Of a DNA stretch of 61,590 nt, positions 1,412 through 61,590 are shown piece after piece. The notes beneath the pieces were generated by a model. It was not told the origin of the DNA and did not search any database. It was given only the letters and a program-made list of their open reading frames with translations. The stretch is taken from positions 1 to 61,590 of the IMG/VR virus record IMGVR_UViG_3300032053_000072; one strand, written 5' to 3'. The position numbers and the translations under genes were made by a program. This DNA is from a virus (taxonomy: Duplodnaviria; Caudoviricetes). The first letter of the stretch is position 1; every line of letters starts with the position of its first letter.

Positions 1412-1440
1412 ATTATAGGCCGCCGCGCCCTACCTGTCAA
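1412..1440 (-). promoter_or_regulatory. Perfect sigma70-type promoter TTGACA-17-TATAAT driving the accessory cassette operon
   Basis: Plus strand tgtcaa 1435-1440 and attata 1412-1417, 17-bp spacer. Confidence 0.92.
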
Positions 1441-1526: not shown

Positions 1527-1555
1527 GGGAAAGGGGCCGGTGACAAGCCGGCCCC
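1527..1555 (-). terminator. GC-rich hairpin GGGGCCGG-cttgtca-CCGGCCCC followed by TTT
   Basis: 8-bp perfect stem (1533-1540/1548-1555); U-tract is short. Confidence 0.55.
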
Positions 1556-1701: not shown

Positions 1702-1730
1702 ATTATAACCTAGATCATACGCCGTTCCAA
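1702..1730 (-). promoter_or_regulatory. Promoter TTGGAA-17-TATAAT overlapping the endolysin stop
   Basis: Plus strand ttccaa 1725-1730 and attata 1702-1707. Confidence 0.7.
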
Positions 1731-43785: not shown

Positions 43786-43813
43786 TTAGCGCGTAGACGC
43801 GGACAACTCCGTC

Positions 43814-44167
43814 TCATGGCGCCTCCTGTGACAGATGCAGCGCCAACTCACCGCGCCGCAGCACGACGTCCCCCACCTCCCAGCCCATGCGCCGCACGTC
43901 AGCATCGCTATAGACGTAGAGCCACCGGCCGGCCGGCAGGTGCCCCGTCACGAGTGCCCACGCTAGAGCCTGACTCTCCGCGGTCGCCAGCGCATCGGCG
44001 TAGTACCCATCGGCAAGGACCTCAGTTAGGGTTGCGCCAAAGCGACCATCCTGGACTCTCGCCTGCATCGTTGTCGCCACCAGGAGTGCGGCATCAGGGC
44101 CGAGTACGCCCACCTCGCCGGCGAGGACTCGGGCGATGAGCTGAGCGGCAAGCAGGAGCGCGATCAC
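43814..44167 (-). CDS. Secreted cell-wall-hydrolase (SleB)-like protein
   Basis: Signal-like N-term; IARVLAGE...VATT..AR...F..TLTEV. Confidence 0.5.
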   Translation of the reverse strand: MIALLLAAQLIARVLAGEVGVLGPDAALLVATTMQARVQDGRFGATLTEVLADGYYADALATAESQALAWALVTGHLPAGRWLYVYSDADVRRMGWEVGDVVLRRGELALHLSQEAP

Positions 44168-45033: not shown

Positions 45034-45064
45034 GTGTGCCCCTCACTCTCCGGTAGAAGTGCGA

Positions 45065-46060: not shown

Positions 46061-46106
46061 GTGGCTCACGTCCGCGCCTCGCGCTCCGGCTGCCTCGACG
46101 TGGTGT

Positions 46107-46346
46107 TCATTCTGGCGTCGGCTGGGCCGGCGGAGAGATTTGCTCGAATGTGAATCCCGTACTTCTGCAAGCGACGCATTCCACATCGCTAGTCTCGTTG
46201 TAGGGATACCCCCATTGCTGCCGCCGATATCGGAAGTGGCCGGTTCCTCCACAGCGATCACAGAGTACCGGTTTCAATGCTTCGTTTTTCATGTTGGCTA
46301 GAAACTCGCGCTCCATCACACCTAATCTCGTCTTAGTTTCATCCAT
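46107..46346 (-). CDS. Small DnaJ-type Zn-finger protein
   Basis: CDRCGGTG...CVACRSTG; RBS AAGGAG. Confidence 0.6.
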   Translation of the reverse strand: MDETKTRLGVMEREFLANMKNEALKPVLCDRCGGTGHFRYRRQQWGYPYNETSDVECVACRSTGFTFEQISPPAQPTPE

Positions 46347-46704
46347 TGAAGTCTCCTTTCGCCTGCCCCTCACTCTCCGGCTGCCACACTCCCGTCTTCT
46401 CCCATTGCGGATGCTTCCCGCGGGGCTCTGTCTCCTGGACGGCCTTGTGCGCCGCGACGTGGGCGAAGTACGCCTGCCGTGCTCGCTCGTATGCCGGCCA
46501 GGCATCGCCATCCCAGATGCGACCGCGAGTGCCGGCACGCATGCTCGCCCCCTGCATCGTCACCCAGAGTACCTGCGCCTCCGGGCAGCGCGGGGTGTAG
46601 CCGCTACCGGTATCGCCCGTGCAGCCACACGTCAGCGGGACGCGAGTGTGGCCGCGCAAGTCCTCTCTCATCATCTCCTCCTCGGTTAGAGACGACACAT
46701 ACAT
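46339..46704 (-). CDS. Hypothetical protein
   Basis: Coupled ORF; probable start at the MM downstream of GAGGAG. Confidence 0.5.
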   Translation of the reverse strand: MYVSSLTEEEMMREDLRGHTRVPLTCGCTGDTGSGYTPRCPEAQVLWVTMQGASMRAGTRGRIWDGDAWPAYERARQAYFAHVAAHKAVQETEPRGKHPQWEKTGVWQPESEGQAKGDFNG

Positions 46705-47426
46705 GGGACGTAGTAGTCCAGGCCGGAAAACAGCGTGCCCTGTTGTGCGAACTGGCGCAGGGACATTTTCCCGCCTGGATCGAAGAAGCTGTTGCCGCCC
46801 TTGCCTGCTGCCCGCCGCTCTGTGCTGGCCTCCTCAAGCCTAGCTGCTCGCTCGAATAGATCAGGGTGCCGCTCCAGTAGGTCACGCCACTGGCGTGGCG
46901 ACTGGAAGGGACACAGCCAGCACGAGCTTTTGCGTGGCACCTCTAGCCCCGCCGCCTGGATAATGCGCGCGCAGGCGTTGCGATCTAGGCCACGGTCTAC
47001 CAGCGGCCGTACCTTGTCCGGCTGGCGACGTGACTCCTCAGCGCTGATGCCTATGAGTAGGGTGGCAGGATCGTGGTCATTCGCCGTGCACCAGGCGTGT
47101 ATTGGCGCGATCTTCCACATGCTGGTACACCACCTGGCGCCGGCGAATGGCGTTACGCGGTAGTGCTCGCAGTAGTCGATGAGAGCCATCCGCTTCTTCC
47201 CTCGTCGCCATTCCGGCCCCAGCATCGTTACCGCCAGGTCGCGGTCAGCGAGCCAGAGCTTGAATGTGTCCACGTAAGCGTCAGTCTCCGGCCACTCACA
47301 GCCCGTCGCCGCCATGACAATCGGACCGTGCCAGCCTTCGCCCACGAGCAGCACCACGAGAGCGATACTGTTGACGCCGGCACCTAGCGATAAAGGGATG
47401 CCGTCGTACTCATGCGTCGCCATCAC
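46686..47426 (-). CDS. PAPS-reductase-like (PP-loop) protein
   Basis: SLGAGVNS, TG.E.PET, RWCT..WK, KSSCWLCPF. Confidence 0.8.
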   Translation of the reverse strand: MMATHEYDGIPLSLGAGVNSIALVVLLVGEGWHGPIVMAATGCEWPETDAYVDTFKLWLADRDLAVTMLGPEWRRGKKRMALIDYCEHYRVTPFAGARWCTSMWKIAPIHAWCTANDHDPATLLIGISAEESRRQPDKVRPLVDRGLDRNACARIIQAAGLEVPRKSSCWLCPFQSPRQWRDLLERHPDLFERAARLEEASTERRAAGKGGNSFFDPGGKMSLRQFAQQGTLFSGLDYYVPCMCRL

Positions 47427-47456
47427 GCCGCACCTCCTGCACCCGATCCGCCGCCA

Positions 47457-47735
47457 TCACACGCGCTTCCATCCGCCCTTGCCCGTTTTGCTGTAGTAAC
47501 AACGCATCCAAGGATTGGTGCGACCTTTGGGGTCCGGCGGGTACTTGATGCGGATGACTTCGATGATGGCTGCCGCGCGCTCCTCGTCGCATTCCAGGAG
47601 GACGGCGGTGCCGGCAATGTCTCTAGGAGTGGCGTCTACAAATATGCGGTTGGGGGTGACTGGAGCGACCAGGCAGGGCAGCGTTATCGGGTCGCGTCTA
47701 ACTACCAAGTCGCTGACATTTACGGCGTAGGGCAT
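47457..47735 (-). CDS. Hypothetical protein
   Basis: ORF starting MPYAVN with RBS GAGG. Confidence 0.5.
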   Translation of the reverse strand: MPYAVNVSDLVVRRDPITLPCLVAPVTPNRIFVDATPRDIAGTAVLLECDEERAAAIIEVIRIKYPPDPKGRTNPWMRCYYSKTGKGGWKRV

Positions 47736-47748
47736 CCTGGCACCTCGC

Positions 47749-48426
47749 TCACTCTGGCATCTCCATCGGCAGCCGCAGTTGGGCCATCGCCGCCTCAATC
47801 CTTGCCCGTGCAATCTTGAAGTAGTGCTCGTCTATCTCGATGCCCACCATGCCAAACCCTTCCTGTGTCGCAGCCTTCCCGGTGCTTCCGCTGCCCAGGA
47901 AGGGATCGAGCACTACGCCACCAGGCGGCGTCACCAGGCGGCAGAGGTAGCGCATCAGGGCAGTGGGCTTCACGGTGGGATGGAGGTTGCGGCGTGGTAA
48001 GTACGCATTGCTGATGCAAGTCGCTTCCTCACCCCGCAGTTGTGAGGCACGGGCAAGTGCATTGGAGGCGACTACCTCTTCTAGCCCATCGCACCCCTCG
48101 TCCCTGTCCGCCTTGCTCGCTTTCGCACAATACACCAGCCGACTAGCCCGCTCGTCCGCGTCTAGCGGGCAAGCCTTGAAGAAGCGGGCAGCGGAACCGA
48201 AGTCGCCCATCGCGTGGGCCGACGTGCCCGTAGTCGAGGACTGTCCCTTGCCGCTACCATAGATCGCCTGCAAGTCCGTGCGAGCAATGCGTTTATGCGG
48301 GAAGTGGCCGCCATCGCGCTCCGTGAATAGGCCAACCACTTCATCGCTAGCGGGATTAGGCAACTTGGTAAAGAGGCGCTGTAACTGCTCTGGCATCCGC
48401 TTGTACGTGGCCTCGTCAATCTTCAT
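47749..48426 (-). CDS. N6/N4 DNA methyltransferase, C-terminal fragment (SAM-binding)
   Basis: HPTVKP..LMRYL and VLDPFLGSGST. Confidence 0.88.
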   Translation of the reverse strand: MKIDEATYKRMPEQLQRLFTKLPNPASDEVVGLFTERDGGHFPHKRIARTDLQAIYGSGKGQSSTTGTSAHAMGDFGSAARFFKACPLDADERASRLVYCAKASKADRDEGCDGLEEVVASNALARASQLRGEEATCISNAYLPRRNLHPTVKPTALMRYLCRLVTPPGGVVLDPFLGSGSTGKAATQEGFGMVGIEIDEHYFKIARARIEAAMAQLRLPMEMPE

Positions 48427-49012
48427 AGCGTCTGCCGTGTACCGCGTAGTGATGCCTGGCACAGAGCGTTTGCCCATTCGACAAATCCCAGAGCGCCTGG
48501 CAGTCGCGGGCTTGGTCGCGGCTCACTATCTCGTACTCTTCCATCAGGACCGCCAGCGGGATCAGATGATGCGCCTCCACGTTTTCCTGGCTACCGCAAA
48601 CAAGGCACTTCCCATCACGCGCCTTTACGGCGTCCATCCATTTGCGGTTTTCGTTGAGAGTGCGGACGGAGGCATTGAGCCTGGAACTACCACCATGCCA
48701 GCGATAGTGATTGGCGCCGCGAGTCTTCTCAGCCCTAGCCCTCACCTTTTCCGGGTTCGTCGCGCACCATGCCTTGTGCGATTCCGATGTTTTGCGCTTC
48801 GAGTCGTCGCGGTGATGGTAGCCCGTCCGGTGATTCGTACCTGCAACTCGCCCCAGCAAAAGGCCAGCCATCTGCGCTTCAGTAATGCCTGCAAGCCTCT
48901 GCGCCTCGGCTCGGTGTTCCATGCAGGCAACATGACGCACCGTCGTTAGTTCGCCAGGGCGCCGGTAGAGCGCCTTATGGCAGATGACGCATTCGCTGTT
49001 AGGCGTTCGCAT
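48416..49012 (-). CDS. HNH endonuclease inserted in the methyltransferase gene
   Basis: RD..CLVC...AHH...N..TLC..HH...H; G.NHYRWHGG DNA-binding motif. Confidence 0.9.
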   Translation of the reverse strand: MRTPNSECVICHKALYRRPGELTTVRHVACMEHRAEAQRLAGITEAQMAGLLLGRVAGTNHRTGYHHRDDSKRKTSESHKAWCATNPEKVRARAEKTRGANHYRWHGGSSRLNASVRTLNENRKWMDAVKARDGKCLVCGSQENVEAHHLIPLAVLMEEYEIVSRDQARDCQALWDLSNGQTLCARHHYAVHGRRYED

Positions 49013-50102
49013 CCATCCACCCCGCTAGCTCCCGCAACTGGCCTGACGTCACGTCGTCACGTAACTGGTACTGGTCTTCGGGATATGAAAGGATCAGGTT
49101 GGCGGGCCAGCGGCCGGCGGCATTCTCAGGCTGCCGCCTATGTTCCTGTGCGGCAAAGGGCATCGAACCGCCCTCCGCTATCGAGCCATCCGAGCGGCGC
49201 CATGTTGACCAATTACCCTCTACTCGGCACGCATCCACATTGATTGCGCCTGTCCCCCAGCGCAGCACATTGGCCGCGACCGTGCCCTCCAGCGACTTGC
49301 GGGCGACGATGATGGGCTCCCAGGCGGGCTTCAGTGCAGTGCCCCAGCCCTGCCATTCGCGGGCGGCGTCGGTGGCGGGGGCGGTGATAAGTGCCGCACT
49401 TAGCCGTGTCTCCGGGGTGCTATTCCCGAAACCTGCACCAAAGTCGCTACCACCGACATGCCCATGTAGGTGATAACCTGGTCGGCTCAGCTTATCCCCC
49501 ACAACTTCCCGTTCCGCTCTCGCCGCCTTGTCTATGGCCTTGCTGACGTCTAGCGACTTCGGGAACCCGCTCCCGTAGACCCACATCACCGTGTCGCGGA
49601 TCTCCCAGCCTGCATCCTCGATAGCGCAGGCCAAACGGTGAAAGGTGCGCGTGCCTCCGAAGGCCAACAAATGCGCTCCCGGCTTGGCAACTCGTAGCAA
49701 CTCAGTTGCCCAAATTGTTGCCCAATCCTGGAATGCCCGCATGTTGGCCTGACGTAGATTCGGGAAGGCTGGGGTATCACATTTGCAGGGGTTCGATGAT
49801 ACCTTCCATTTGCCGCATGACCGGCATCGGACATTACTCCGCTTCTCAAAACTTGGTCTTGGTAAGCGCTTACTACCGTCACGCATTTCTACTGGCGCAA
49901 TGCCTTCATTCCAACGTTTCCCTACATGTGGGTCTTGTTCCCATGGCGCATCCCATTCTTTGCCCATGAACTCCAGGCCATAGGGGGGATCTGTAACAAT
50001 GCTATCCATCGAGTCAGCCGCCAGCGTGGGCAACACCTGGAGGCAGTCGCCCAGATAGAGCACGACTCTGCCGTCCGGACTGCGGTAGGTCGCCTCGATC
50101 AT
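48999..50102 (-). CDS. N6/N4 DNA methyltransferase, N-terminal fragment (catalytic)
   Basis: GDCL, TDPPY, WVYGSGFPKS, LKPAWEP and GRWPANL. Confidence 0.9.
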   Translation of the reverse strand: MIEATYRSPDGRVVLYLGDCLQVLPTLAADSMDSIVTDPPYGLEFMGKEWDAPWEQDPHVGKRWNEGIAPVEMRDGSKRLPRPSFEKRSNVRCRSCGKWKVSSNPCKCDTPAFPNLRQANMRAFQDWATIWATELLRVAKPGAHLLAFGGTRTFHRLACAIEDAGWEIRDTVMWVYGSGFPKSLDVSKAIDKAARAEREVVGDKLSRPGYHLHGHVGGSDFGAGFGNSTPETRLSAALITAPATDAAREWQGWGTALKPAWEPIIVARKSLEGTVAANVLRWGTGAINVDACRVEGNWSTWRRSDGSIAEGGSMPFAAQEHRRQPENAAGRWPANLILSYPEDQYQLRDDVTSGQLRELAGWMDANA

Positions 50103-50591
50103 CGAGACTCCATCGGCAGACGCGGTTGGTGCGTCCGCTCCTCCTGCTCTACCCTGTCCAAGACGGCACTCATGGCTGCCAGTGGCGGTACATGATTGGG
50201 CTCTTGTGCCGTCCGTACAGCACCGCATAGATGTGGCTGCGGGAGTTGTGGTCCCGTTGGCCAGGGTTGTTCCGGTAGTGGCGGCGGCAAGATACTCGGA
50301 ACTCCTCGAGCAGTTTCACTCTGGCACCCACATGGGCGGCAGGCCATGGAGCGCTCGCTCGCGGTTCTCGAGGGCATCCAAGATTGGCTTGATCTGGGTC
50401 ACATGCCGCACCACTCGCTCGTTCCCATGCCGTCTGCCGAGCGCGTAGTACAGTTTCTCTCTTGCATTGACGGCGTTACGGTCAGTCCGTCGGCCATAAT
50501 GACGCCGGCAATCATGACGGAACTCGTCGAGCGGTTTGATTGTGCCCTCCCTGGGGCGCCCACGTTGGCAGGCGCCCCTCCCTCGCGGCGA

Positions 50592-51467
50592 CTAGAATGG
50601 TCGCGGCTCCGGCCCAGGCAATGGAGCCTGTTGTGCCGGCTGCTCCGCCTCCGACTGGCGCTCAATGGCCGCATCAATGACCGCGACCACCTCGTCTACA
50701 CTGCCCAATTCCCAAAGATCGGCCTTGAGGGCTACTTTTGGCAGACCAAGCAGATCGGCGGCTTGCCGCTGGCCGAGGGTGCGCTTCCGCAATTCTGCCG
50801 CGTACCGGTTCTGCTCGCTGGGCGGCCAATGGTGCTTTTCCTTCTCGGCGGGCGGCTCGGTGGTCGGTGGTGCGGCTTGTGGCACAATCTCACCAGCCTC
50901 CGTCACTCTTACCTGTTGGGCCCCGGGCACCGTGCCGACCTCACTTTCGTCGAGCCAACCCAGGCCGACGATGCTGAGCGTCACGCGCCGTTTTGCCTTG
51001 GTCTCGGCTTTCATGATGGCATTGGCACGATCCTCGCCGCGTAGCGGCGTGTAAGTACCATTGCGAGCAAAGTACCGTTTGCCACTTTCCGCTGTCTTCC
51101 ACTCGCCGTTCTCGCGCTCCAATGCAACAGCGCCAACGCTTTCGTCCGTCCTCCCATCCGGCATCGTGGCCCGTGCGGTCACGATGTAGACGCCCTCGAC
51201 AAGTTCTCGCGCCGGCATCGTGATATTCACGTGGTGGTTGTCGCGCAGTTGGTCAGTGCATCCTCGCAGAGCGTAGAGCACCAACTTGCCGTTGAGCTCG
51301 ATGTACTCGAATGGTTTGGTAAGGGGATTCAATGCTAGGCTTTCGCATACAGCCCGGTAATACTGGACACGCTCTTTGGGCGTCAGTTGGGAGAGATCCC
51401 CCTTCACGATCACCGCCTCAATCACGGCGGCATCATCCTGTTTCGTTAGCGCTCGTTCCTCACTCAT
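50592..51467 (-). CDS. ssDNA annealing recombinase (RecT/Red-beta-like)
   Basis: LNPL..PF...LYA and MKAETKAKRR..L...GL. Confidence 0.75.
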   Translation of the reverse strand: MSEERALTKQDDAAVIEAVIVKGDLSQLTPKERVQYYRAVCESLALNPLTKPFEYIELNGKLVLYALRGCTDQLRDNHHVNITMPARELVEGVYIVTARATMPDGRTDESVGAVALERENGEWKTAESGKRYFARNGTYTPLRGEDRANAIMKAETKAKRRVTLSIVGLGWLDESEVGTVPGAQQVRVTEAGEIVPQAAPPTTEPPAEKEKHHWPPSEQNRYAAELRKRTLGQRQAADLLGLPKVALKADLWELGSVDEVVAVIDAAIERQSEAEQPAQQAPLPGPEPRPF

Positions 51468-51468
51468 C

Positions 51469-53549
51469 TCAGTCCTCCAACTGATAGTGCCGTACTCGGA
51501 AATGCGTCGCTTTGCGTTCCAACAGCCGCCCGGTCAACCGGTCGTAGGTGCCGCCCGGTAGTGAGCGATGCAGGGCCTCCTCGATCTGCCGCGCTTGGTC
51601 GTCGAAGAACACCCCGGCGGCGTTCAAGTCTTTGTGCTGGGGCTGGGTTTCAGTGATAGCGATGATCATGTCATCCACTGGCCAATGCTCGATCCCCCAC
51701 GCTTTGCAGACGCGAATCTCGCTCACCGTCCTACCTCCTCACCATGATGCTAGGGTGGCTCATCTCCTCGGGCTCGTCCGGCCTTACATATTCCGGGAAG
51801 AAGTGCTCCACGCATGTTTCGCAGATACCGTCACTCGTGCCGGTTATGCCGTAGCCGGGTTTGGTGCCGAGGTCGGCATTGCACCAGGCGCACCTAACCC
51901 GGATGATGCTCACTCTGCCTCACAACTCGTGATGAGTTGCTCTGCCGGCTTTGATGCTAACTGTTCCTCATCCGCAATCCATCGCTCCGCCGCAGCCCGA
52001 AAGTCCGCCTCGCGTTCGGCCTGCCAACGTGCGGCGATCTCCGCTACTGCCTGGTTGAGGTCGCGGGCGATGGTCACGGTGGGGATCTTGGAGATCGTCA
52101 CGAACGGCAGTCGGAGTCCCTCGGCCACTTTCTCGAAGGCAGCTCGCTTCAGCGACAACAGGTTGCCGTGCTGGTTGGTGATCGCCCATTCGAGCGCCTT
52201 GATCTCGGGATAGGCGAGCGTCGTCAACTCCTTGACGCTCAGGCCGGGTGCCGGATGGCGATTATCGGCACTGTAGTCGGCAGCGCGAATCTCGGCCTCG
52301 ACCTTGGTGACAAAGTCTCTATTCAGGCGGATAAGATCAATCGTGAACTTGTGGGCTGCATCGAACACTGCTTGATCTTGGGCCAACTTAGCTTGCAGCC
52401 TGGCCAATTCCGCGCGATGTTCGGCCAAGTCATAGACTGCCGCGTCCAGCTCCAGTGTCTCCATCTCTCCCTCCCTATGCCGCGCGCTGCGGATAGAATG
52501 CGCCGGCGCGGTCAATCTCTTCGGGCGTGGCACCGAGACTCTGCGCGGCACGGATGCTGCGTCTCGTCTCGTCCTCCCATGACGCCCACATTCCCGGATC
52601 GCACTCGTACCGCGATGTAGCCAGCCACTTCGCCTCATTCGACCGACGGCGCACCTGGCCTAGCGCGCGTGCAAGCGCTTTGTCCATCGTCATTGCCTCC
52701 CTCACCAGGCGCGCCAGCAAATCCGAACGAGTGTGTCAGTCTCTTGTTCGAATTCTAGTCCCCGCATAGCAGCTCGGTCAGCAACCAGGGCAGCTTCCTC
52801 GCTGCTCGCGCAGCGGACACTGAGGCTGCTATCACTGACCGTGACCATGCGAGAGTCCGGTACGTCCTCTAGGGCTGCCAGCAATTGGTATAGGTGGCGA
52901 ATCGTCATCACACTACCTCCCCTACCTCCCCGTCTTGTAGTTGTGTCATGACCATTTCATCCAGGGTGTCCTTGATGGCATCGATGTAGTCGCTATGAAC
53001 GTTGTAATAGAACGTCGTGTCATCCACATTCCTTACCGCCATGCTCCAGACCGGCTCTACCTTTCGGCGAGACGGACGATCTATGAGAATCCGATTCGCT
53101 CCAGCGACGTTCACGTCCTGGTATTCACCATCCGCGAGTTTGACCCACATCGTCACACCTCCCCTACTTCAGTCGTCGCCGCTCTTGCCGGCGTATCTCA
53201 TCGCGCGCATAGGCAACCATCAGGGTGCCAGCGCTACCCAGCACCGCTAGTAGGCCGTAGAAGACGAGCCAGACGCCGAGGTCGGTCATAGCGCCGCCAG
53301 CTTTGCCCGCGCCTTGGCGAGAGCATCAGAGTCGCTCTCTGCGCAGAATGTCTTCGTCCAGTCGGCCTTGTCGCGCATGTCGCGCACGAGCCAGTAGCGG
53401 CGGGGGCGACCCGTTCGCCCGCGGCCATCGCTGCGCAGCAGGTAGTAGGCATCGTCCGGCGTGGCGGCAATGCGACGCCAGATGAGCATGGCGAATCGGC
53501 GGTCAAGGTCCTCAATTTCCCACGATGCCTGCAATGTGCCAATGGTCAT
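51469..53549 (-). other. Run of small early hypothetical genes (e.g. 51469-51726, 51731-51913, 51910-52464, 52702-52911, 52908-53156, 53286-53549)
   Basis: Coupled ORFs with GGAGG-type RBSs. Confidence 0.6.
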
Positions 53550-54247
53550 CGTCCGCCTCCCCGCATCTGCCACAGGCGCAATCCGGCCCGGATGATCACC
53601 CAGAGTGAGTAGACCGCCAGGAGCGCGATGAGTCCCATGGTCAGCATCGGCGTGACTCCGCCCGCAGCCGTGACTCTTCGTACATGGCGTGTGTGGCAAT
53701 GTGCCGGGTGGGGTAGTCACCCATCGCGTCGAGGGCATTGAGCAGGCGGCACAATTCGGTGAGCCATGCCTGTGGCTCGGTAGCGATGGGATTCAGCGGC
53801 CGCTTCGTGGGATTCGTCATCGCCGCCTCGTCTTTCCCGTGTGCAGGTAGGAGTAAGCCACCAGGAGCGCCGCCATTGCCGTGTAGGCGATGGCTATTGG
53901 GAGTGCTACCGTGACCGAGGCGAGACCGACAAGGTAGACAGCCAAATTGCCAAACATTAGGCCGGCCCAGATCAGGATGATGTCGTGTATGCGTATCGTC
54001 TGGCTCATCGCCCATCCCTACGTTGCCGACCGCGCTGGATCTGCCACCAACTCCCGCCGACGCCCACGATTGCCACCGCTAGCCATAGGATCACCAACAA
54101 CACCACATCCATGCGCCACCTCCTGCATAGACTCTCGCACCCGCCGCAGCAGTTCGTGCAGCGGCGCACATTGCAGCGCCCACTCACGCCATTCGTCGGG
54201 CGTGGGAATGTTCTCCTCGAGGAGCACATAGGGGCGGGGACAGCGCC

Positions 54248-54667
54248 TCATGCTGGTGCCTCTGCTGTCGCAAACAGGCCAACTGGTAAGGTGCGGCCAC
54301 GAATCCGGTAGAGTAGCCTTACCCATTCCCGTTCATTGAGTCTTGTCGGCTCTTTTACGTAGAGGTGTGCAGCCAAATTCAGGGGCGTCACCCGCCACCA
54401 ACTGAAGTCGCCGGCATAACGGACGGCGAAGACAGGGATGGTTGCGCGGCTACCTAGATCGGCCAATGCTCGGTAGGAAGGATGGGATGGTCTTTGCGGC
54501 GCGGCACTCTCGTGTTTGTACTCTACGAGCGCCATGACTTGGGCATGGTCATACTCGACCAGCACGAAATCCAGATCCACAGCCGGACAGTCCAGGCCCC
54601 AGTAACCATGCCAGTCACTCAGCGCAGCGTCACGCCAACCCGTTCGTTCCGTTCTCGCGTTCCGCAT
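54248..54667 (-). CDS. PD-(D/E)XK nuclease-like protein
   Basis: DLDF...VEYKH pattern; TGATG-coupled to the MTase. Confidence 0.55.
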   Translation of the reverse strand: MRNARTERTGWRDAALSDWHGYWGLDCPAVDLDFVLVEYDHAQVMALVEYKHESAAPQRPSHPSYRALADLGSRATIPVFAVRYAGDFSWWRVTPLNLAAHLYVKEPTRLNEREWVRLLYRIRGRTLPVGLFATAEAPA

Positions 54668-55875
54668 CAAGCCATCTCCGCCAACCGTGCGCGCGTGGTT
54701 GCTATCGCTTGCGGGTCTAGGTCTATTCCTAGGAACCGCCTGCCGAGCGCGGATGCCACAACGGCAGTCGTACCACCACCCAGGAATGGATCGCAGATGA
54801 GTTCGCCTGGCTGGCTGAATCGCTCCATCAGGTCGGCAATGCCGCTCTCGCTCTGGCCCCAATCGTGGTGTTCTTTGTCGGGCCGTTGCGACTTCGTCAC
54901 GTCCCACATCCATTCGCCAGCATATTCACCATTCGTGAACCAGAGTACCGGCTTCCACCCTGTCATTACGTGCCGTTGCCATAGTTGGAGCGTCGCGCCC
55001 GGCGTCAGATAGGCGAGCGTCCAATGATAACGAAGGTGCGGCACCATCAGCGCTAAGACTTCCGGCAGGTAGGACTGGCCCACCATGACCAACGCTGAGC
55101 CACCGGGCTTGAGCCATTCGGCGGCGCGGCGCGCTAGGGTCTTGTAAAGTGGCAGGTACTCGCGGGGGTATGGTGGGTCGGTGAGAATGAGGTCTATGGT
55201 AGCCGGGTCGATTGTCACGTCGGCTATGTCCGCTGTCAGGAGCCGGTAGGAATTGGCCTCTGCGGGCGCCGGCATCCTAGCAGCGCGTTCCAGCTCTCGT
55301 CCCCGGCGTTTCATTGCCTTATAGGCGTCATGGACATTGTCGGTGGCGTCCATTTGCTCAGCGATGGCGGCATAGGCATCGGGCTCGCGCTCAGCCGCCT
55401 CTACCACGGCGCGCGCCTTGGTGTAGGTAGGCCGCGACATGCCGACGGCGGCGGCGACTTTCGCTAACGTTTCGCCTTTCTCTGGCTCCGAAAATTTTTC
55501 GGAGCCAGTCTGACGGTTGCCTTGCGTAGCAGCCATGCGACTAGCCGCCGCCTTTTCCTCCATCGGCTCCAGCGTCCGGCCGATGGCGACCGCCTCGGTC
55601 GGTGTGAAGTCCTTGCGGCACACGTTCTCCGCTCGCTCGCCACGGGCGATAGATGTCAAATCTATGATTGTGGCTGCTATCTCACTCCAACCTAGGAGGC
55701 TGCAAGCGGCCAGACGGCGCTCTCCGGCGATGAGCGTGCCATCTGGCCGCACGACGATAGGATGCAGCAACCCCACCTCAGTGATGCTTTTCGCAAGGCC
55801 GGCCACATCGCCGAGGTCTGTACGGTGCCGATCACTGATGCGAACGTCAGCCAGTCTGAGTATTGTGGCCGTCAC
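54667..55875 (-). CDS. ParB-like domain fused to an N6/N4 DNA methyltransferase
   Basis: LIAGERRL..C; TDPPY; DPFLGGGTT. Confidence 0.9.
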   Translation of the reverse strand: MTATILRLADVRISDRHRTDLGDVAGLAKSITEVGLLHPIVVRPDGTLIAGERRLAACSLLGWSEIAATIIDLTSIARGERAENVCRKDFTPTEAVAIGRTLEPMEEKAAASRMAATQGNRQTGSEKFSEPEKGETLAKVAAAVGMSRPTYTKARAVVEAAEREPDAYAAIAEQMDATDNVHDAYKAMKRRGRELERAARMPAPAEANSYRLLTADIADVTIDPATIDLILTDPPYPREYLPLYKTLARRAAEWLKPGGSALVMVGQSYLPEVLALMVPHLRYHWTLAYLTPGATLQLWQRHVMTGWKPVLWFTNGEYAGEWMWDVTKSQRPDKEHHDWGQSESGIADLMERFSQPGELICDPFLGGGTTAVVASALGRRFLGIDLDPQAIATTRARLAEMA

Positions 55876-56219
55876 GCCAGCGCCTCCTTTATGGGCACGC
55901 AAGGCATACATGCCTTTGCGCCGGCGTCGCGTGCGTCTGGTGGCTCGCCAGGGGCATTAGGGAGCATGGCGGCGTCACGCGCCTGGGACGTTCTGGCCTT
56001 CTTCTGGGACACGCAAGGCACAAACATGCCATTGAGCTCGTCACCCAACATGTCGGCCAGCCGGAAGGTAAGCAGTGCGACAGCCGCCTCGGTCACTGGG
56101 TAGTCGCCATCGCGCAGGCGCCGCAAGTGACGGACGGAGTAGCCCGTAAGCATGGCAAGATTGTCGAGGCCGAGTTGCCTTTTCTTGGCCCACTCAAACA
56201 ACTGGGTTTGGTATCTCAT
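55872..56219 (-). CDS. Cro-like HTH regulator
   Basis: LAMLTGYSVRHLRRLR HTH; first gene of the early operon, divergent from the repressor. Confidence 0.75.
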   Translation of the reverse strand: MRYQTQLFEWAKKRQLGLDNLAMLTGYSVRHLRRLRDGDYPVTEAAVALLTFRLADMLGDELNGMFVPCVSQKKARTSQARDAAMLPNAPGEPPDARDAGAKACMPCVPIKEALA

Positions 56220-56314: not shown

Positions 56315-56341
56315 GTCCGCAGATGAGTTTTGGAGTTGACT

Positions 56342-56683
56342 ATGGCAAAAGCGCAAGAGGAATACGCAGGCACGCCGCTGGCGCAATGGCTCGTCGGCCA
56401 ACTAGCGAAGCGGCACATGACAGCACGCGAGGTAGCATTGAAGGCGGGGCTTGGCCATGGGACGATCTACCGTTATCTCGCAGGTGGTCAGGCTGCGCCG
56501 CCGAAATGTAAACAATTGGCGGCATTCTTCGGCGTACCGGATGAGCAGGTCCTATACCTGGCGGGGCATATTGACCCGCCCCCCGATCACGACCTCTTTA
56601 CGAGGCAGGTGGGGACCCTGGCAAGAGATTGGCCACCAGATCGGAAACGTCGCTTTCTGAAGCTGGCGGAGAGCTTTGAATGA
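56342..56683 (+). CDS. CI-like XRE repressor without a peptidase domain
   Basis: REVALKAGLGHGTIYRYL HTH; LAAFFGV...LYLAG; only ~113 aa. Confidence 0.88.
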   Translation: MAKAQEEYAGTPLAQWLVGQLAKRHMTAREVALKAGLGHGTIYRYLAGGQAAPPKCKQLAAFFGVPDEQVLYLAGHIDPPPDHDLFTRQVGTLARDWPPDRKRRFLKLAESFE

Positions 56684-56786
56684 CCGAGCTCATGGCATCA
56701 AGCATCCGGGATGGCAGTGCCAGATTGCGGGCACGGAGTTGCCAGTAGAGAGTCTCAGCGAAGTCATCACCAAATGAGGGCAGCAT
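56598..56786 (-). CDS. Candidate SOS-inducible antirepressor
   Basis: GGAGG RBS; upstream TAGCAA-17-TATACT promoter with a LexA-like box. Confidence 0.45.
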   Translation of the reverse strand: MLPSFGDDFAETLYWQLRARNLALPSRMLDAMSSVIQSSPPASESDVSDLVANLLPGSPPAS

Positions 56787-56810
56787 GACTCATTCCCCTC
56801 CCGGAGGGAT

Positions 56811-56856
56811 CGAACGTTTGTGCTAGTAGTATACACCCATTCTGGCCGCATTGCTA
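56811..56856 (-). promoter_or_regulatory. Promoter with a LexA-like box GAAC-N4-GTGC over the start site
   Basis: cGAACgtttGTGCt 56811-56824; -10 at 56828-56833; -35 at 56851-56856. Confidence 0.65.
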
Positions 56857-56960
56857 CGGTTTCGCGCATTTGGTTGGCCTACGAGATGCAGTTGACATAG
56901 CAACCGTGACGCTCTCATGAGGCGCCGTCAATGGCGCGTTGGTACTGGGGAGGTGGAGGA

Positions 56961-57680
56961 ATGACTGAGCCCGACGCAACCAAGATATGTGTATTCTGTG
57001 CCGAGGCGATCAAAGCCGCAGCAGTCGTTTGCCCTCACTGCGGCCGTTGGGTTGGGCTGCCGATGCACTCACGCGAGTCTCTCTTCCGCAAATTGATCAT
57101 TCCAGGCATTGCCCTGCTGATTGTCGTCACGGTGGGTGGTGGGCTCGGCTTCACAGTATTGCATGCCAGACAGCAACGCGATCTTCAGCCCCTACAGAGT
57201 AGAGAGACAACCGTCTCGCCTGATGCCGCAGTCCTAGCAGACAGACCGCTGCCGCCAACGGCCACCATGACATCAAAGACCATGGACTTCGCGGACCCGT
57301 CAGACGCGGCTCTCGCTTACTTTAGGCGTCTACAGCCCTACCTGGATAACTTCAGAAAAGCTTTCGTGCAGTTATCGGCTCTATCTGAGCGCCCACAGCC
57401 TGCCTCAAGCGAGTGGAAGGCTGACCTTATGACTGTGGTGCTCACAATACGTCGTAATCACGAAGCACTGCTGCAAATGCAGGATGTGCCACTGGAAGTG
57501 ATGTACATCCACGAGTTGCTGCTCGCCGCAACCGCTGACTACAACGAAGCAGCCTATTACATTGAAAGCGGAGTGGCAATGAACTCTGCACCGGATCTCG
57601 TGCGGGCAACTGAGTTGATAACAAGTGGCACAACAAAGATAACCCACATCACAGAATTGCTCCCTGCCTTAGAGCCCTGA
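56961..57680 (+). CDS. Zn-ribbon plus single-TM membrane protein
   Basis: CVFCAE.I...CPHCG, TM helix, helical C-domain. Confidence 0.8.
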   Translation: MTEPDATKICVFCAEAIKAAAVVCPHCGRWVGLPMHSRESLFRKLIIPGIALLIVVTVGGGLGFTVLHARQQRDLQPLQSRETTVSPDAAVLADRPLPPTATMTSKTMDFADPSDAALAYFRRLQPYLDNFRKAFVQLSALSERPQPASSEWKADLMTVVLTIRRNHEALLQMQDVPLEVMYIHELLLAATADYNEAAYYIESGVAMNSAPDLVRATELITSGTTKITHITELLPALEP

Positions 57681-57768
57681 TTGCCTACACTAAGGAAAGT
57701 GGCTTTAGGAAGCGTGAGAGGGCAGTGAGGTGCCCGCAATGGCGCGATCGTACTGGGGAGGTGGGGAA

Positions 57769-58398
57769 GTGGCGGAGTTGGAAGCGAAACCTCATTGCGA
57801 GCATTGCCATGCAGAGTTGCCCCCGGCAGGGCTTGTATGTCCTCAGTGCGGTCGTCCTCAGTATGCGCAGCCAACCAAGCGCGTAACCAAGTATCTCTCA
57901 GACCGCACGATCATATCGCTGCTCATACCCATCTCCATTGTCGGTTTCATCCTGGTGGCGCTACTGAGCAAGAGCAACCCGCCAGTCCAGTCCGCCTCGA
58001 GTGGCGGAAGCGGCAAAAGTTCCTATGCCCAAGAGATGCGGACGCCGATGGGTAACTTAGGATTGTGGATTCCACATTTGCGGTCTTTTCTGGAGGAGTC
58101 CGCTAAGGGCAACCCCATAGTCTACTGGTGCAATACGAAGGGGTATGCCCAGGTCTCTTCCGAGGGAAGCCAGATCGTCCGCCAATTGGGCCAGATTACC
58201 CCACCTTCAGACCTGGCTACTGCTCATGGCGGGCTTCAAGCGAGTATCCGCTCTGTTCTTGGCTCCATGGCCGCGGCTGAGGTGGACCTTTGCATCAATG
58301 GCGATATCCCCGCAGCGACAACCCGCATGGATGAAATCACCGTTGGTGTGCGCGGCATGACCAGTTGGCTGCAAGTCATGACCGAGAAGATGCAGTAG
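57769..58398 (+). CDS. Zn-ribbon plus single-TM membrane protein
   Basis: CEHC...CPQCG, TM helix, helical C-domain. Confidence 0.8.
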   Translation: MAELEAKPHCEHCHAELPPAGLVCPQCGRPQYAQPTKRVTKYLSDRTIISLLIPISIVGFILVALLSKSNPPVQSASSGGSGKSSYAQEMRTPMGNLGLWIPHLRSFLEESAKGNPIVYWCNTKGYAQVSSEGSQIVRQLGQITPPSDLATAHGGLQASIRSVLGSMAAAEVDLCINGDIPAATTRMDEITVGVRGMTSWLQVMTEKMQ

Positions 58399-58412
58399 GA
58401 GCCGTCTACCCC

Positions 58413-59891
58413 ATGCCGCGCCGCCGCAACTCCCGCTCCGCTCGCGCGACCGTCCGGCCCCTGCAGGCCGGTGACGAGGTGTGGGCATACCTGCGCGTCT
58501 CGACTGGCAAGCAGGCGGAGGCCGGTTTGCCCATTAACGGTCAGCGCGAGGCCATCGAGGCATACTGCCAGGCGCGTGCCTATCGTCTGACGCGCACCTA
58601 CTCTGACGAGGGTATCTCCGGCACGACCGATCACCGTGCCCAGTTCCAGACGATGGTCGATGAGGCACAAGCGTTGCGCCCGCGCGCCATCATCCTCTGG
58701 TCGTGGTCGCGTTTCAGCCGGGACCAGAACGACGCTGCATTCTACAAGGCGCTCTTGCGCCGGCATGGTGTGGATCTGCTCACGGTGGAGGATGAGGTGC
58801 CCAACGTCGAGGGGTTCGGCAACATCCTGGAGGCTCTGATCCACTGGCGAGACGAGCGGGAGAACGTGGCACGTGGCCAGGCCACCAAACGCGGCCATCA
58901 TGCCCTGGCGCATCTGGGCTACCACCCCGCCGGCAATGGCAACTGCCCCGTCGGCTACCGGGCCGCCACGGTGCTGGTGACGATAGCCGGCAGAGAGGGT
59001 GAGCGCCGGCGCATTGAACTCGACCCCGCCCTGGCCCCGATGGTGCGCCGCGCCTATGAGATGCGCTTGGCCGGCGGCAACTTCGAGGCGATCAACGAGG
59101 CCTGCCAACTCTTTGCCCACCCCAACGACCTCGGTGCCATGTTCCGCAACCCGACCTACCATGGCCGTTACCACTGGGGGGACACCGAGGTAGCCGTGCC
59201 GGCCATCGTCACTGAAGCCGAATGGCAGCGGGTGTACGACGGGCTCTCACGGGGCCGCGGCGGCGCCTACTCGCGCACCAGGGCCAGCGACTACCTCCTC
59301 AGTGGCCTCGTCTGGTGCGGTGTCTGTGGTGCGCGGATGAAGGGCCACTCTTGCTCACCCCGGGGCCGGCGCTGGCACTACTACCGCTGTTTCACGCCTG
59401 ACTGCATCATCCGCGGCATACCACGAGCGGAGCTCGAGGCGGCGGTGACGGAGCGCCTGATCACCCGCTACCTGACGCCACGTCTGGTGGCTGATATGGA
59501 GGAACGGGCGCGCCAGCATCAGCAGGACAGCGGCCAGCAGGAGCGGATCGCGGCACTGCGAGCCGAGGTGCGGCTGCACGACAAGGCGATCACTAACCTG
59601 GTTAGTGCTCTGGAGAGAGCGCCCGATACGCGCGAGTTGACTGAGCGCCTGCGACAGCGCGGCCAGGAGCGCGGGCGCCTACTCTCCAAGATCGCGGCGC
59701 TGGAACATTCCGTTCCCACCGTGCCGAGTGTCGAGGACGTGCTGGGGTTGCGGGAGCGGCTCAAGCAGGCGCTCGTGGACGGGGAGCGGCGCCTTGCCCG
59801 CGAGTTGATCCGGCAGTGTGTCGAGCGGGTCACGGTTGAGGGGTCGCGTGAATGGCGGGTCAAGTGGCGCCTACTCGTTTGTCCACGGTAG
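58413..59891 (+). CDS. int: Large serine recombinase (integrase)
   Basis: YLRVST, DEGISG, SRFSR, recombinase domain, LLSGL..CGVCG...YYRC zinc ribbon, coiled coil. Confidence 0.95.
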   Translation: MPRRRNSRSARATVRPLQAGDEVWAYLRVSTGKQAEAGLPINGQREAIEAYCQARAYRLTRTYSDEGISGTTDHRAQFQTMVDEAQALRPRAIILWSWSRFSRDQNDAAFYKALLRRHGVDLLTVEDEVPNVEGFGNILEALIHWRDERENVARGQATKRGHHALAHLGYHPAGNGNCPVGYRAATVLVTIAGREGERRRIELDPALAPMVRRAYEMRLAGGNFEAINEACQLFAHPNDLGAMFRNPTYHGRYHWGDTEVAVPAIVTEAEWQRVYDGLSRGRGGAYSRTRASDYLLSGLVWCGVCGARMKGHSCSPRGRRWHYYRCFTPDCIIRGIPRAELEAAVTERLITRYLTPRLVADMEERARQHQQDSGQQERIAALRAEVRLHDKAITNLVSALERAPDTRELTERLRQRGQERGRLLSKIAALEHSVPTVPSVEDVLGLRERLKQALVDGERRLARELIRQCVERVTVEGSREWRVKWRLLVCPR

Positions 59892-59926
59892 GCACGGTGA
59901 ACACGGCGACGACCGTAGGCAAGCAA
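59875..59926. other. Candidate attP
   Basis: 52-bp imperfect inverted repeat (17/25 pairs) centred on GTG-AA-CAC at the 3' end of int. Confidence 0.6.
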
Positions 59927-59928
59927 GG

Positions 59929-59965
59929 GGCCCCGGTGGTGAGCCGGGGCCTGGGTAGTAGGCTA
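59929..59965 (-). repeat. Cassette repeat copy D (hairpin only, no RBS)
   Basis: CCCCGGtggtgagCCGGGG at 59931-59949. Confidence 0.9.
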
Positions 59966-60277
59966 GTCGGGGAAATCCTGTTGGTCCGCTCCTGGAGTGC
60001 ACTCGTAATGCCGGGGCCTGGAGTCGGCGAACGACGCGTACCAAGGTGCGTTCACGATGATTGCTCCGCAAACGGCGCAGCGAGGGACAGCGGCCGTCTC
60101 CGCCGGGTGGCCATCCACATACGTGCGAACGCACCGCTCGCCACAGAAGGGTCGAATATCATCGCGCCGTCCGTCTGGCGACCGGCGAAATAGGTAATAC
60201 ATCGGGCGGCTTCGGATGCCGCACCCGGTATCACAGACCAGGCACTTCACTGCTCCATCGGTTCTCTCGTGGTTCAC
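59963..60277 (-). CDS. Cys-rich hypothetical protein (cassette gene)
   Basis: GTG start from the repeat C RBS; three CxxC/CxxxC motifs. Confidence 0.7.
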   Translation of the reverse strand: MNHERTDGAVKCLVCDTGCGIRSRPMYYLFRRSPDGRRDDIRPFCGERCVRTYVDGHPAETAAVPRCAVCGAIIVNAPWYASFADSRPRHYECTPGADQQDFPD

Positions 60278-60279
60278 GT

Positions 60280-60349
60280 TCTGCCTCCTCATTCTGGTTG
60301 GCCCCGGTGGTGAGCCGGGGCCTGGGTGCGTGGGGTGGGAAACGCGCTA
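60280..60349 (-). repeat. Cassette repeat copy C
   Basis: Hairpin at 60302-60320 plus CCAACCAGAATGAGGAGG. Confidence 0.92.
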
Positions 60350-60688
60350 CTCGCTGTCCTTCTTGTCCAGGTTGAACTCGTCTATGTTGTCGAGTACCTG
60401 CTCCCAGAGGTAATCGCTGGCTGAGTCGCGCAGGTAGCTCTCGATACTGCGCCGAAGGCCGCGGCCAGGTGGGTCGCCAAAGATGCCCTGCTCCAACGTC
60501 ATCACCACGACCTCATCCTCGGCTACCGGGGTCAGTGAGGACTGCGAGCCGAATCCATAGTGAGGTTCGTAGGTTATGATCGGCTCATTCCTCACCCGAC
60601 GGCGGTAAAGGTCGTTTGGGTGAAACTGATCGGCATACGCTTGCGCGGTAATGGCGGCGAAATCTCTGCGGTCGGGGTCACTACTCAC
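60347..60688 (-). CDS. Acidic hypothetical protein (cassette gene)
   Basis: GTG start from the repeat B RBS. Confidence 0.7.
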   Translation of the reverse strand: MSSDPDRRDFAAITAQAYADQFHPNDLYRRRVRNEPIITYEPHYGFGSQSSLTPVAEDEVVVMTLEQGIFGDPPGRGLRRSIESYLRDSASDYLWEQVLDNIDEFNLDKKDSE

Positions 60689-60754
60689 AGTCTGCCTCCT
60701 CATTCTGGTTGGCCCCGGTAGTAAGCCGGGGCCCTGGGTGCGTGGGATGGGCTA
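60689..60754 (-). repeat. Cassette repeat copy B
   Basis: Hairpin at 60713-60731 (loop tagtaag) plus RBS. Confidence 0.92.
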
Positions 60755-61072
60755 GGCGGTCGCGGCATTGATCGGAGCGCGGCCGTCGTATTCGTTCGCG
60801 CATTGCTGGCAGAGGTTGTACCCGCTCCAGTCCGGGTTGGTGCTGTGAGTCGTGGCGGGCACGCCATGCTCGCCCGTCGCGGCGCATGATTCGCACTCAA
60901 TTACATGAGTCTCCACAGTCTGCCTCCTCTCGGTGATGCCCCGCGCGTTGAGTTCGCGCAGGGCCAGGCGGATGATACTGCTGACGTGCTCCCTGCCAGT
61001 ACTGGCATGGAGCCTGGCGATGATGGCGCGGTCGTCGTCGGTTAGCCGGATGGTGGTGATCTTGGTTTTCAT
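60752..61072 (-). CDS. RHH-like domain fused to a Zn-finger region; paralog of 51-494
   Basis: TTIRLTDDDRAIIARL...IIRLALREL; internal RBS and in-frame GTG at 60916. Confidence 0.75.
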   Translation of the reverse strand: MKTKITTIRLTDDDRAIIARLHASTGREHVSSIIRLALRELNARGITERRQTVETHVIECESCAATGEHGVPATTHSTNPDWSGYNLCQQCANEYDGRAPINAATA

Positions 61073-61082
61073 CAGGCCGCCT

Positions 61083-61142
61083 TCACCTGAGGTCGGCCCG
61101 AATCATGGCGGCTACCGTTGCGTGTGCGCTCCTCGTCTTCAT
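61083..61142 (-). CDS. 19-aa peptide MKTRSAHATVAAMIRADLR
   Basis: AGAGGAG RBS 8 nt before ATG; fills the intergenic gap. Confidence 0.45.
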   Translation of the reverse strand: MKTRSAHATVAAMIRADLR

Positions 61143-61169
61143 GGTTTCTACTCCTCTAGGTCTGTTGGG

Positions 61170-61442
61170 TTAGGCTACCAACACTTCCTCGCGATCCCAC
61201 TGCCATAGTGGCCAACCGTCATCATCTGTCGTCTCGCAACGAAGATTCACGAGGCGGTATACCTGACCATTCATAGTGCCAGCGAGGCGCTTGGCGCTGG
61301 CGATTGTCGCGCAATGGCGACACATCACGTCATTTTCACTGGACTGCCACATGACGTAGTAGCGCGTGGGCTCGTGTCGGTCGTGACCGCCGTCGGCATT
61401 GTAGGGAGTCTCCATCCAGGTATCGCCTGTTGCTGTTTTCAT
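61170..61442 (-). CDS. Hypothetical protein (cassette gene)
   Basis: ATG start from the repeat A RBS GAGAGGAGG. Confidence 0.7.
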   Translation of the reverse strand: MKTATGDTWMETPYNADGGHDRHEPTRYYVMWQSSENDVMCRHCATIASAKRLAGTMNGQVYRLVNLRCETTDDDGWPLWQWDREEVLVA

Positions 61443-61446
61443 CGTT

Positions 61447-61516
61447 CCGCCTCCTCTCATTCGGGTTGGCCCCGGTGGTGAGCCGGGGTCTGAGTGCGTG
61501 GGGAGCGGTTGGGCTA
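61447..61516 (-). repeat. Cassette repeat copy A (its part from 61464 on recurs at 1-53)
   Basis: Hairpin at 61470-61488 plus RBS. Confidence 0.92.
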
Positions 61517-61590
61517 GGGAGTCACCCCCGCCTTCCGGCATAGGCGCCGATACTCGTCTTTTACTGTCTGGGGTAGGCCACCTTGCCTCT

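Follow-up and report, generated by a model that had tools for sequence, protein, structure and literature searches.

Do short structured repeats between phage genes drive the flux of those genes, or do they just mark it? This question is raised by an operon of small genes that spans the two ends of a 61,590-nt stretch of DNA from a virus of the Caudoviricetes (IMG/VR record IMGVR_UViG_3300032053_000072; the whole stretch is called the window hereafter), in which four copies of an intergenic unit, each built around a G/C-rich hairpin, lie between or after the genes. A first reading, made from the sequence alone, proposed a repeat-delimited array of exchangeable accessory or anti-defence genes, shuffled by the phage annealase or by the serine recombinase encoded next to the array. 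Our best explanation, held with moderate confidence, is that the units are RNA-level intercistronic punctuation, serving as a terminator at the operon end and as an attenuator, stabilizer or Shine-Dalgarno clamp inside the operon, and are also short-homology exchange points, within a 'moron'-type accessory operon of a temperate phage that lies between the lysis module and a convergent integrase.

Four copies of one intergenic unit in a single operon

The operon is on the minus strand. It starts at 1440..1412 with a perfect sigma-70 promoter, as the sequence-only reading had stated, crosses the junction of the circular genome, and ends head-on against the integrase gene. Its seven genes (P1 to P7) and four units (A to D) follow one another in the order P1, P2, P3, unit D, P4, a hairpin-less spacer, P5, unit C, P6, unit B, P7, unit A (Table 1). 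The pattern CCCCGG-N7-CCGGGG, which forms the core of the hairpin, matches the window at positions 7, 59931, 60302, 60713 and 61470, in one orientation throughout, where 0.35 matches are expected by chance and five matches were reached in 0 of 100 shuffles. The matches at 7 and 61470 are one copy because positions 1-127 of the window repeat 61464-61590, which leaves four distinct copies at the places where the hairpins had been reported.

The stem measures 8 bp in units A, B and C (GGCCCCGG/CCGGGGCC) and has one outer mismatch in D, and the coding-strand loop is CTCACCA in A, B and D and CTTACTA in C. The order of elements described from the sequence, namely a TAG stop codon, a C-rich stretch, the hairpin, a ribosome-binding site (RBS) and a start codon, is indeed found in B, C and D, whose coding strand reads as a C-rich box CCCACGCAC(C/T)CAG, the hairpin, AACC(A/C)GAATGAG(AG)GAGGC(A/G)GA, and the start codon. 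Stop-to-start spacers, counted from after the stop codon to before the start codon, are 63-71 nt long. Unit A, at the operon end, resembles the others only up to the end of the hairpin; it lacks the RBS, as had been noticed, and CCAACC is missing too.

Spacer identity is 92% between B and C (58/63), 83% between B and D (58/70) and 79% between C and D (52/66), and 66-71% between A and the three others. All four genes that precede a unit end with TAG, compared with 10 of 53 other minus-strand open reading frames (ORFs), an excess with a probability of about 0.001 if the events were independent, which they are not, because P3 and P5 are paralogous. These two proteins share 38% amino acid identity (E 1e-15), and their ribbon-helix-helix (RHH) parts are 66% identical in DNA. 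They are the one related pair among the 28 pairs formed by the seven array proteins and a partial ORF from the related contig L143 (see below), so that the units do lie between small genes of which 27 in 28 pairs are unrelated, with P3 and P5 departing from the earlier description.

The promoter scan, whose one strong site is the operon promoter, detected no promoter-like site in any unit, and its sole internal match (9/12) is inside P5. With no promoter in the units and a shared RBS instead, all genes therefore hang on one upstream promoter. No match to Rfam was obtained at the gathering threshold over the whole window.

A hairpin of the terminator type

Across the genome, a scan for perfect G/C-rich hairpins lists 12 places. 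The combination of 8 G/C pairs with a 7-nt loop is confined to A, B, C and a fifth place at 1533-1555, all listed by this perfect-stem scan, plus the mismatched D, which comes from the pattern search. The fifth hairpin, read from 1555 to 1533, probably is the terminator of the upstream late or lysis transcript. Compared with the array stems, it shows two compensatory pair changes, and 47 of 48 cells are paired over the aligned stems.

The identical 19-nt stem and loop occurs in 36 stretches of unrelated IMG/VR contigs (L027-L062), corresponding to 33 distinct sites in contigs with 38-70% G+C. At 22 of these 33 sites, the hairpin is followed within 10 nt by at least five T on the CTYACYA strand, whose polarity is that of the coding strand of the operon; the hairpin is therefore a standard terminator hairpin. 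In the window, the 10-nt tail contains one T in each of B, C and D, four in A, and five at hairpin 1555. The G/C hairpin of a canonical intrinsic terminator is thus present in the units and the direct U tract is absent, and a consensus terminator scan lists none of A-D or hairpin 1555. When GGTTGG was added to the hairpin pattern, merely five unrelated chance sites were found in IMG/VR, and with the loop fixed there were 0 matches in metagenome contigs and 0 in genome contigs.

Copy A, at the operon end, and hairpin 1555..1533, after the lysis genes, both have a T-containing tail and probably terminate transcription. Since B-D have no U tract and are followed 9-10 nt further on by a shared strong Shine-Dalgarno sequence, they are most likely attenuators, or else stabilizers or processing points of mRNA 3' ends.

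We also observe that the region of the fifth hairpin has features of its own. A 270-nt non-coding stretch lies past the endolysin gene (1441-1730), with a promoter-like site matching at 10/12 positions at 1730..1702 on the minus strand and a CCUCCUC-rich segment directly before hairpin 1555..1533. A small RNA of some 170 nt that contains an anti-Shine-Dalgarno segment could be encoded here; alternatively, the plus strand has a 62-aa ORF (1525-1713).

Predicted folding around the ribosome-binding site

In the predicted RNA folds of B, C and D, the hairpin tips an interrupted helix in which the C-rich box pairs with the Shine-Dalgarno sequence and the start region. In partition-function folds, the probability that the Shine-Dalgarno sequence is unpaired is 0.26, 0.02 and 0.21 in the three units, compared with a median of 0.60 and a lower quartile of 0.30 for 28 other phage genes, whose start sites come from a crude ORF call. 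The box of unit A, which has no gene downstream, is less C-rich. These values are a weak sign that the C-rich box may occlude the Shine-Dalgarno sequence.

We propose that the units would act in the mRNA as intercistronic regulatory cassettes of a single, one-promoter operon. The C-rich box would pair weakly with the Shine-Dalgarno and start region, so that translation of the downstream gene would be tied to translation or processing of the upstream one. At the DNA level the units, about 65 nt long and 79-92% identical, would double as homology patches, probably used by ordinary short-homology recombination with no dedicated recombinase.

Gene differences at the units in related phages

No close relative of the array was found in IMG/VR, in GenBank phages (distant blastn) or in the genome collection. 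IMG/VR also contains no close relatives of the integrase, P6 or P7, and P3 has no match in GenBank phages. P2 has 16 distant relatives in IMG/VR (30-52% identity), and no comparable unit is present at the four of these 16 loci examined for repeats. Relatives of the portal are merely 44-57% identical; among five near-complete ones (55-57% identical), 0/5 have an integrase match and 0/5 a repeated G/C hairpin family, and the unit architecture therefore does not characterize the wider portal family. The portal also gave no match in genome contigs that would point to a host, and its matches in GenBank phages (about 50% identity) span many host genera.

A closer comparison is provided by L143, a metagenome contig of 5,653 nt whose integrase is 94% identical and whose DNA is 96.5% identical over window positions 56791-59955. 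After the integrase stop codon it has the same spacer and the same 8-pair stem with an extra A-T pair, and a different, 8-nt loop. Identity ends 4 nt past hairpin A, and the preceding gene is an unrelated Cys-containing ORF that also ends with TAG. As judged from this alignment, L143 appears to carry a clean replacement of the last gene at unit A. Because the stem is kept and the loop is free in sequence and length, the hairpin is readily understood as an RNA structure, and poorly as a recombinase core or as a dyad that a protein binds at a set spacing.

Parts of the stretch are present in eight sediment-metagenome runs, one of which (X1) contains all of it and is probably the sample of origin. 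Three others (X2-X4) contain rearranged neighborhoods in Logan contigs. A 5,440-nt contig of X2 is L143-like; 311 different letters then lead to a unit and to the 3' terminus of a P6-like gene. A 206-nt contig of the same run contains the end of P7 with the hairpin, nine unit-like letters, the RBS stretch of 60914-60929 and the zinc-finger part of P5, which would represent a different gene order. In an 835-nt contig of X4, 60323 is joined to 60748 via 13 letters, so that P6 is absent between the P5-like end and P7, and the sequence past hairpin A is unlike the integrase. In X3, 60338 is joined to 61165 via 13 letters, and P4 is directly followed by a unit and P7. Overall, the joints in the three runs are 60323>60748, 60338>61165, 59922>60693 and 60929>59929; the letters inserted at each joint are not present in the window, and all eight joint ends fall within unit, intergenic or RBS stretches. 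The comparison of gene content in related contigs that the sequence-only reading had suggested thus yields a replacement in L143 and joints at units in three runs, the latter at low depth and in possible chimeras.

Neither of the two recombination functions first held responsible for shuffling is favored by these data. In L143, whose integrase is 94% identical, the arms are 8 instead of 7 nt apart, which argues against the hairpin as the core of attP and against a role for the serine integrase; moreover, the joints are at differing positions of the unit, and the unit is unlike an att site of a large serine integrase. Nothing that would identify an attP was found, neither a host nor a prophage junction having been detected. 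As for the annealase, a scan of 20 early-region proteins turned up no annealase family, and this part of the proposal is unsupported.

Weighing the explanations

Several observations weigh against the explanation that we prefer. The covariation depends on a single hairpin (1555), whose homology to the array hairpins is uncertain, and the stem change in D gives an A.C mismatch in the coding-strand RNA and a G.U pair in the opposite strand. The fold z-scores of the extended helix are modest or absent (-2.55, -1.76 and +0.53 for B, C and D), and the 206-nt contig of X2 joins a less C-rich box of the unit A type to a full RBS stretch, which weakens the idea of Shine-Dalgarno occlusion; we therefore hold this idea loosely. 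The short Logan contigs (151-835 nt) have a depth of 2-7 and derive from 31-letter words, so that paths through near-identical units are possibly chimeric, and the contigs of X1, from which rare variants are dropped, contain no credible variant joint, the sole one being a 151-nt record of depth 2. Finally, the relatives L143 and L144 show mosaicism throughout the early region, and their junctions there coincide with gene boundaries that carry no unit, for example around 44164-44180/46066-46082 and at 46683-46689. That a junction coincides with a gene boundary is therefore no proof of unit-mediated exchange, and may reflect selection for intact genes.

These mosaics lead to a rival explanation, in which the units are purely regulatory punctuation and gene flux is marked by them, not caused, because selection removes gene-breaking recombinants. 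The early-region junctions of L143 and L144 at gene ends or RBSs that have no unit, the scan of 20 early proteins, which found neither an annealase nor another function dedicated to recombination, and the contigs of X1 all agree with it. Nevertheless, identity between L143 and the window stops within 4 nt of the conserved hairpin block, the array joints end without exception in unit, intergenic or RBS stretches, and blocks of 58-63 nt with 83-92% identity have sufficient length for homologous recombination in phages; the excerpted account in PMC2839356 cites a homology requirement under 50 bp for the T4 system. On balance we find this rival rather unlikely. More than punctuation and passive exchange might also be at work: the units may be the linker cassettes of a promoter-less shuffling platform like the PeSL elements of T4-type phages, with one consensus promoter beside the integrase for a row of ORFan slots, each slot being bounded by a unit that supplies the TAG stop codon, a terminator-type hairpin and a ready RBS, so that an inserted gene would be expressed at once and translationally tied to its neighbor by the clamp of C-rich box and Shine-Dalgarno sequence. 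We put this forward tentatively, as a possibility only. If it were true, the presence of P7 in at least three neighborhoods in related sediment phages would be the footprint of the platform.

Three further explanations can be considered. The dyad GGCCCCGG-N7-CCGGGGCC might be a binding site for a phage protein such as P3 or P5, an operator or 'stoperator' that tunes transcription of the operon, and its perfect 8-bp arms, its single orientation, the conservation of flanks outside the stem, and the two RHH-type proteins encoded in the same operon could be understood in this way. We consider it improbable, given that L143 keeps the arms with a spacing of 8 instead of 7 bp, a shift that a dimeric DNA binder would tolerate poorly, that two arm positions are changed compensatorily in hairpin 1555, that no copy is located at the promoter, that identical hairpins elsewhere are ordinary terminators, and that the RHH assignment itself is below the Pfam cut-off. 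Site-specific recombination, with the units as integron-like sites or pseudo-att sites of the serine integrase and the genes as true mobile cassettes, would account for the integrase gene adjoining the array and for the cassette-like gene differences at units. It is very improbable all the same, as the recombinase is of the serine type, promoter-distal and convergent, the perfect 8-bp stem has no attC-like imperfect fold, the spacing changes next to a nearly identical integrase, and the joints lie at varied unit positions with 9-13 or 311 extra letters instead of at a single crossover point. The repeats might, lastly, be passive, functionless relics of tandem duplication of a gene with its downstream spacer, consistent with the paralogy of P3 and P5 and with the extra bases that the units after them (D and C) share directly past the stop codon. 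We give this last idea hardly any credence: the best-conserved pair, B and C, links genes that are unrelated, DNA identity has fallen to 66% between the duplicated genes and is still 79% between the units following them, and the hairpin block is kept in relatives. The likeness of the units may instead be kept either by constraint or by repeated homogenization. RNA-level punctuation combined with short-homology exchange thus remains the reading that we prefer.

Operon genes and genome setting

The window is a complete virus record with direct terminal repeats, classed as 100% complete and circularly assembled, with a unique length of 61,463 bases and a G+C content of 0.60. The minus strand carries nearly all genes. 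The coordinates of the features are given in Table 1.

Table 1. Coordinates, in window numbering, of the units, the operon and the surrounding features
Feature	Position	Strand	Remarks
Operon promoter TTGACA-17-TATAAT	1412..1440	-	consensus 12/12
P1, 67 aa	1181..1384	-	first operon gene; ORF list; no significant family match
P2, 237 aa	496..1209	-	Cys-rich N-terminal part; phrog_1581 (unknown function)
P3, 147 aa	51..494	-	RHH N-terminus and in-frame CxxC zinc-finger part; weak RHH_1 and DnaJ_CXXCXGXG matches; TAG end
Unit D	61443..61513	-	hairpin 61468-61490, identical to 5-27; C-rich box, RBS
P4, 90 aa	61170..61442	-	TAA end; no full unit after P4 in this genome
Hairpin-less spacer	61073..61169	-	unit-like RBS stretches and 19-codon mini-ORF
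P5, 106 aa	60752..61072	-	RHH and zinc-finger, paralogue of P3; TAG end
Unit C	60689..60751	-	hairpin 60711-60733
P6, 113 aa	60347..60688	-	acidic C-terminus; no family match; TAG end
Unit B	60278..60346	-	hairpin 60300-60322
P7, 104 aa	59963..60277	-	Cys-rich; weak DUF7576 match below Pfam cut-off; TAG end
Unit A	59892..59962	-	hairpin 59929-59951 at operon end, without RBS; then CCTTGCTTGC
Fifth hairpin	1533..1555	-	8 G/C pairs, 7-nt loop; then TTTCCCATT; between endolysin stop (1710) and operon promoter
Endolysin-like gene	1710-3203	-	endolysin stop at 1710
Portal	28961-30874	-	
Large terminase	30858-32285	-	
Plus-strand block	56330-59891	+	repressor-like gene, two paralogous Cys-rich genes, large serine integrase
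Large serine integrase	58365-59891	+	convergent to operon; Pfam Resolvase, Recombinase, Zn_ribbon_recom; phrog_95

For the function of the array genes, nothing usable was obtained from Pfam, PHROGs, PADLOC, NCBIfam and two Atlas look-ups. The anti-defence role proposed from the sequence has no matches in PADLOC, NCBIfam, Pfam or Atlas and is a guess, because the array genes are ORFans in the databases scanned. P3 has weak matches to Q-like antiterminators (E 0.0016 and 0.0068), which look like generic CxxC matches.

P3 and P5 also have an internal feature in common. An RBS stretch with an in-frame start lies exactly between their RHH and zinc-finger parts (333-352 in P3 and 60914-60929 in P5, minus strand); the stretch in P5 is an exact copy of that of unit C, with GTG as the in-frame start, and in the 206-nt contig of X2 a full unit precedes the zinc-finger part, in the manner of a gene of its own. 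Both genes might use internal initiation or derive from the fusion of a former gene pair. The hairpin-less spacer, with its mini-ORF, contains two degenerate copies of the unit RBS stretch, and X3 has a full unit after P4; the spacer looks like the scar of a lost cassette or of a lost hairpin.

P5, P6 and P7 form one frame of 370 codons (59963-61072, minus strand), broken only by two TAGs, in which the hairpins would read as Gly/Pro-rich segments (…GPGSPPGPT…). Read-through of TAG was considered and rejected, the common frame being taken as coincidence: P3 and P4 are out of frame, no tRNA or suppressor tRNA gene was found in the phage, and by our own count on the reconstructed X2 contig the junction of P7 to the zinc-finger part is out of frame too.

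Elsewhere in the genome, two plus-strand genes of the lysogeny block (56931-57680 and 57730-58398) have similar N-termini (MARWYWGGGG… and MARSYWGGGE…) with CxxC motifs, and match each other as a 'goes back' joint in the read-laying output. The early region (42000-56000) includes at least four DNA methyltransferase-like genes, at 54667-55911 (a ParB-like fusion), 48999-50228, 47749-48477 and 44164-45033, together with a PAPS-reductase-like gene and a radical-SAM-like gene. L144 squeezes about 18 kb of this region into 8 kb, with several of those genes missing, and one of its deletion joints coincides with a near-repeat of 17 nt found at the ends of two genes. A perfect 12-bp palindrome with a 3-nt center (55482-55508), inside the ParB-like/methyltransferase gene, is the longest inverted repeat without mismatches in the genome scan.

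Comparison with known systems

Most of what has been worked out to date about conserved regulatory linkers that steer recombination to safe sites concerns the PeSLs of virulent T4-type phages. In the excerpts of PMC2839356 and PMC4122927 used here, PeSLs are conserved composite motifs that combine a strong promoter with a G...C stem-loop terminating transcription; they flank ORFans of variable regions, and the crossovers that produce indels between close relatives, as well as mini-circles, take place in them. As far as these excerpts describe them, the likeness to our units is twofold: in both cases a short conserved composite intergenic motif carries a terminator-type stem-loop of a G run and a C run, next to small ORFans in a variable region, and genes are inserted, lost or exchanged between close relatives at junctions within the motifs, a pattern that for our units is tentative, being drawn from L143 and from low-depth, possibly chimeric contigs. 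The stem-loop here, present four times between genes, consists of 8 G/C pairs around a loop of 7 nt. In contrast, each PeSL cassette in those accounts is its own transcription unit, owing to a strong sigma-70-like early promoter, and no such promoter is present in the units here; furthermore, the phage studied here is temperate with a serine integrase, and not a T4-like myovirus.

A second comparison is with the start-associated sequences (SAS) and ESAS of Cluster K mycobacteriophages, which look similar to the units and are still without a known function. The excerpted description (PMC3203893) gives 93 sites across Cluster K genomes, each a Shine-Dalgarno-containing sequence 3-7 bp before a start codon, in many cases with inverted repeats upstream whose arms are 4-13 bp apart. 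Within what this source describes, SAS/ESAS and the units share a conserved asymmetric sequence with a Shine-Dalgarno core that ends a few bases before the start, an inverted repeat just upstream whose arms are separated by a short variable spacer, a single orientation, and a location in the non-structural part of the genome before genes of different families. This layout is found in units B, C and D, with a different sequence and arm length. The arms here consist of 8 perfect G/C pairs, whereas imperfect 17-bp repeats are described for SAS/ESAS; the four copies are in one operon, instead of being spread through the right half of the genome; and the units include the preceding stop codon and the C-rich box. 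The 13-bp SAS consensus GGGATAGGAGCCC has one match in the window (two mismatches, at 45358, off gene starts), with 1.81 expected. The analogies with PeSLs and SAS drawn by the sequence-only reading therefore hold as working analogies and fail as membership, as the PeSL promoter and the SAS consensus are both missing.

The RNase III sites between T7 early genes and the REP hairpins in the E. coli mal operon are intercistronic hairpins that stabilize or process polycistronic mRNA, and intercistronic repeats in one transcript can set differential stability or expression without full termination. The units resemble these systems in being repeated structured elements between the cistrons of one transcript. 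A stem of 8 bp alone is too short for RNase III, and the extended helix with the C-rich box is only weakly predicted here.

Integrons, also invoked at first, share with this locus one promoter for a row of small genes that lack promoters of their own, a folded repeat after each gene, and an adjacent recombinase gene. The recombinase here is of the serine and not of the tyrosine type, distal and convergent, and there is neither attI nor attC architecture: attC is an imperfect palindrome with extrahelical bases and a fixed recombination point, whereas here the stem is a perfect 8 bp and the joints are at several positions. The integron analogy therefore fails in every defining feature tested (recombinase type, position, attI and attC).

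We class the units as conserved intergenic regulatory linkers that coincide with modular exchange. Among the systems compared, the locus is a compact case from a temperate phage, with a linker made of a hairpin and an RBS and with natural variants visible in metagenomes, and its four units and seven genes make a small, testable system for how phages keep new ORFans expressed and insulated.

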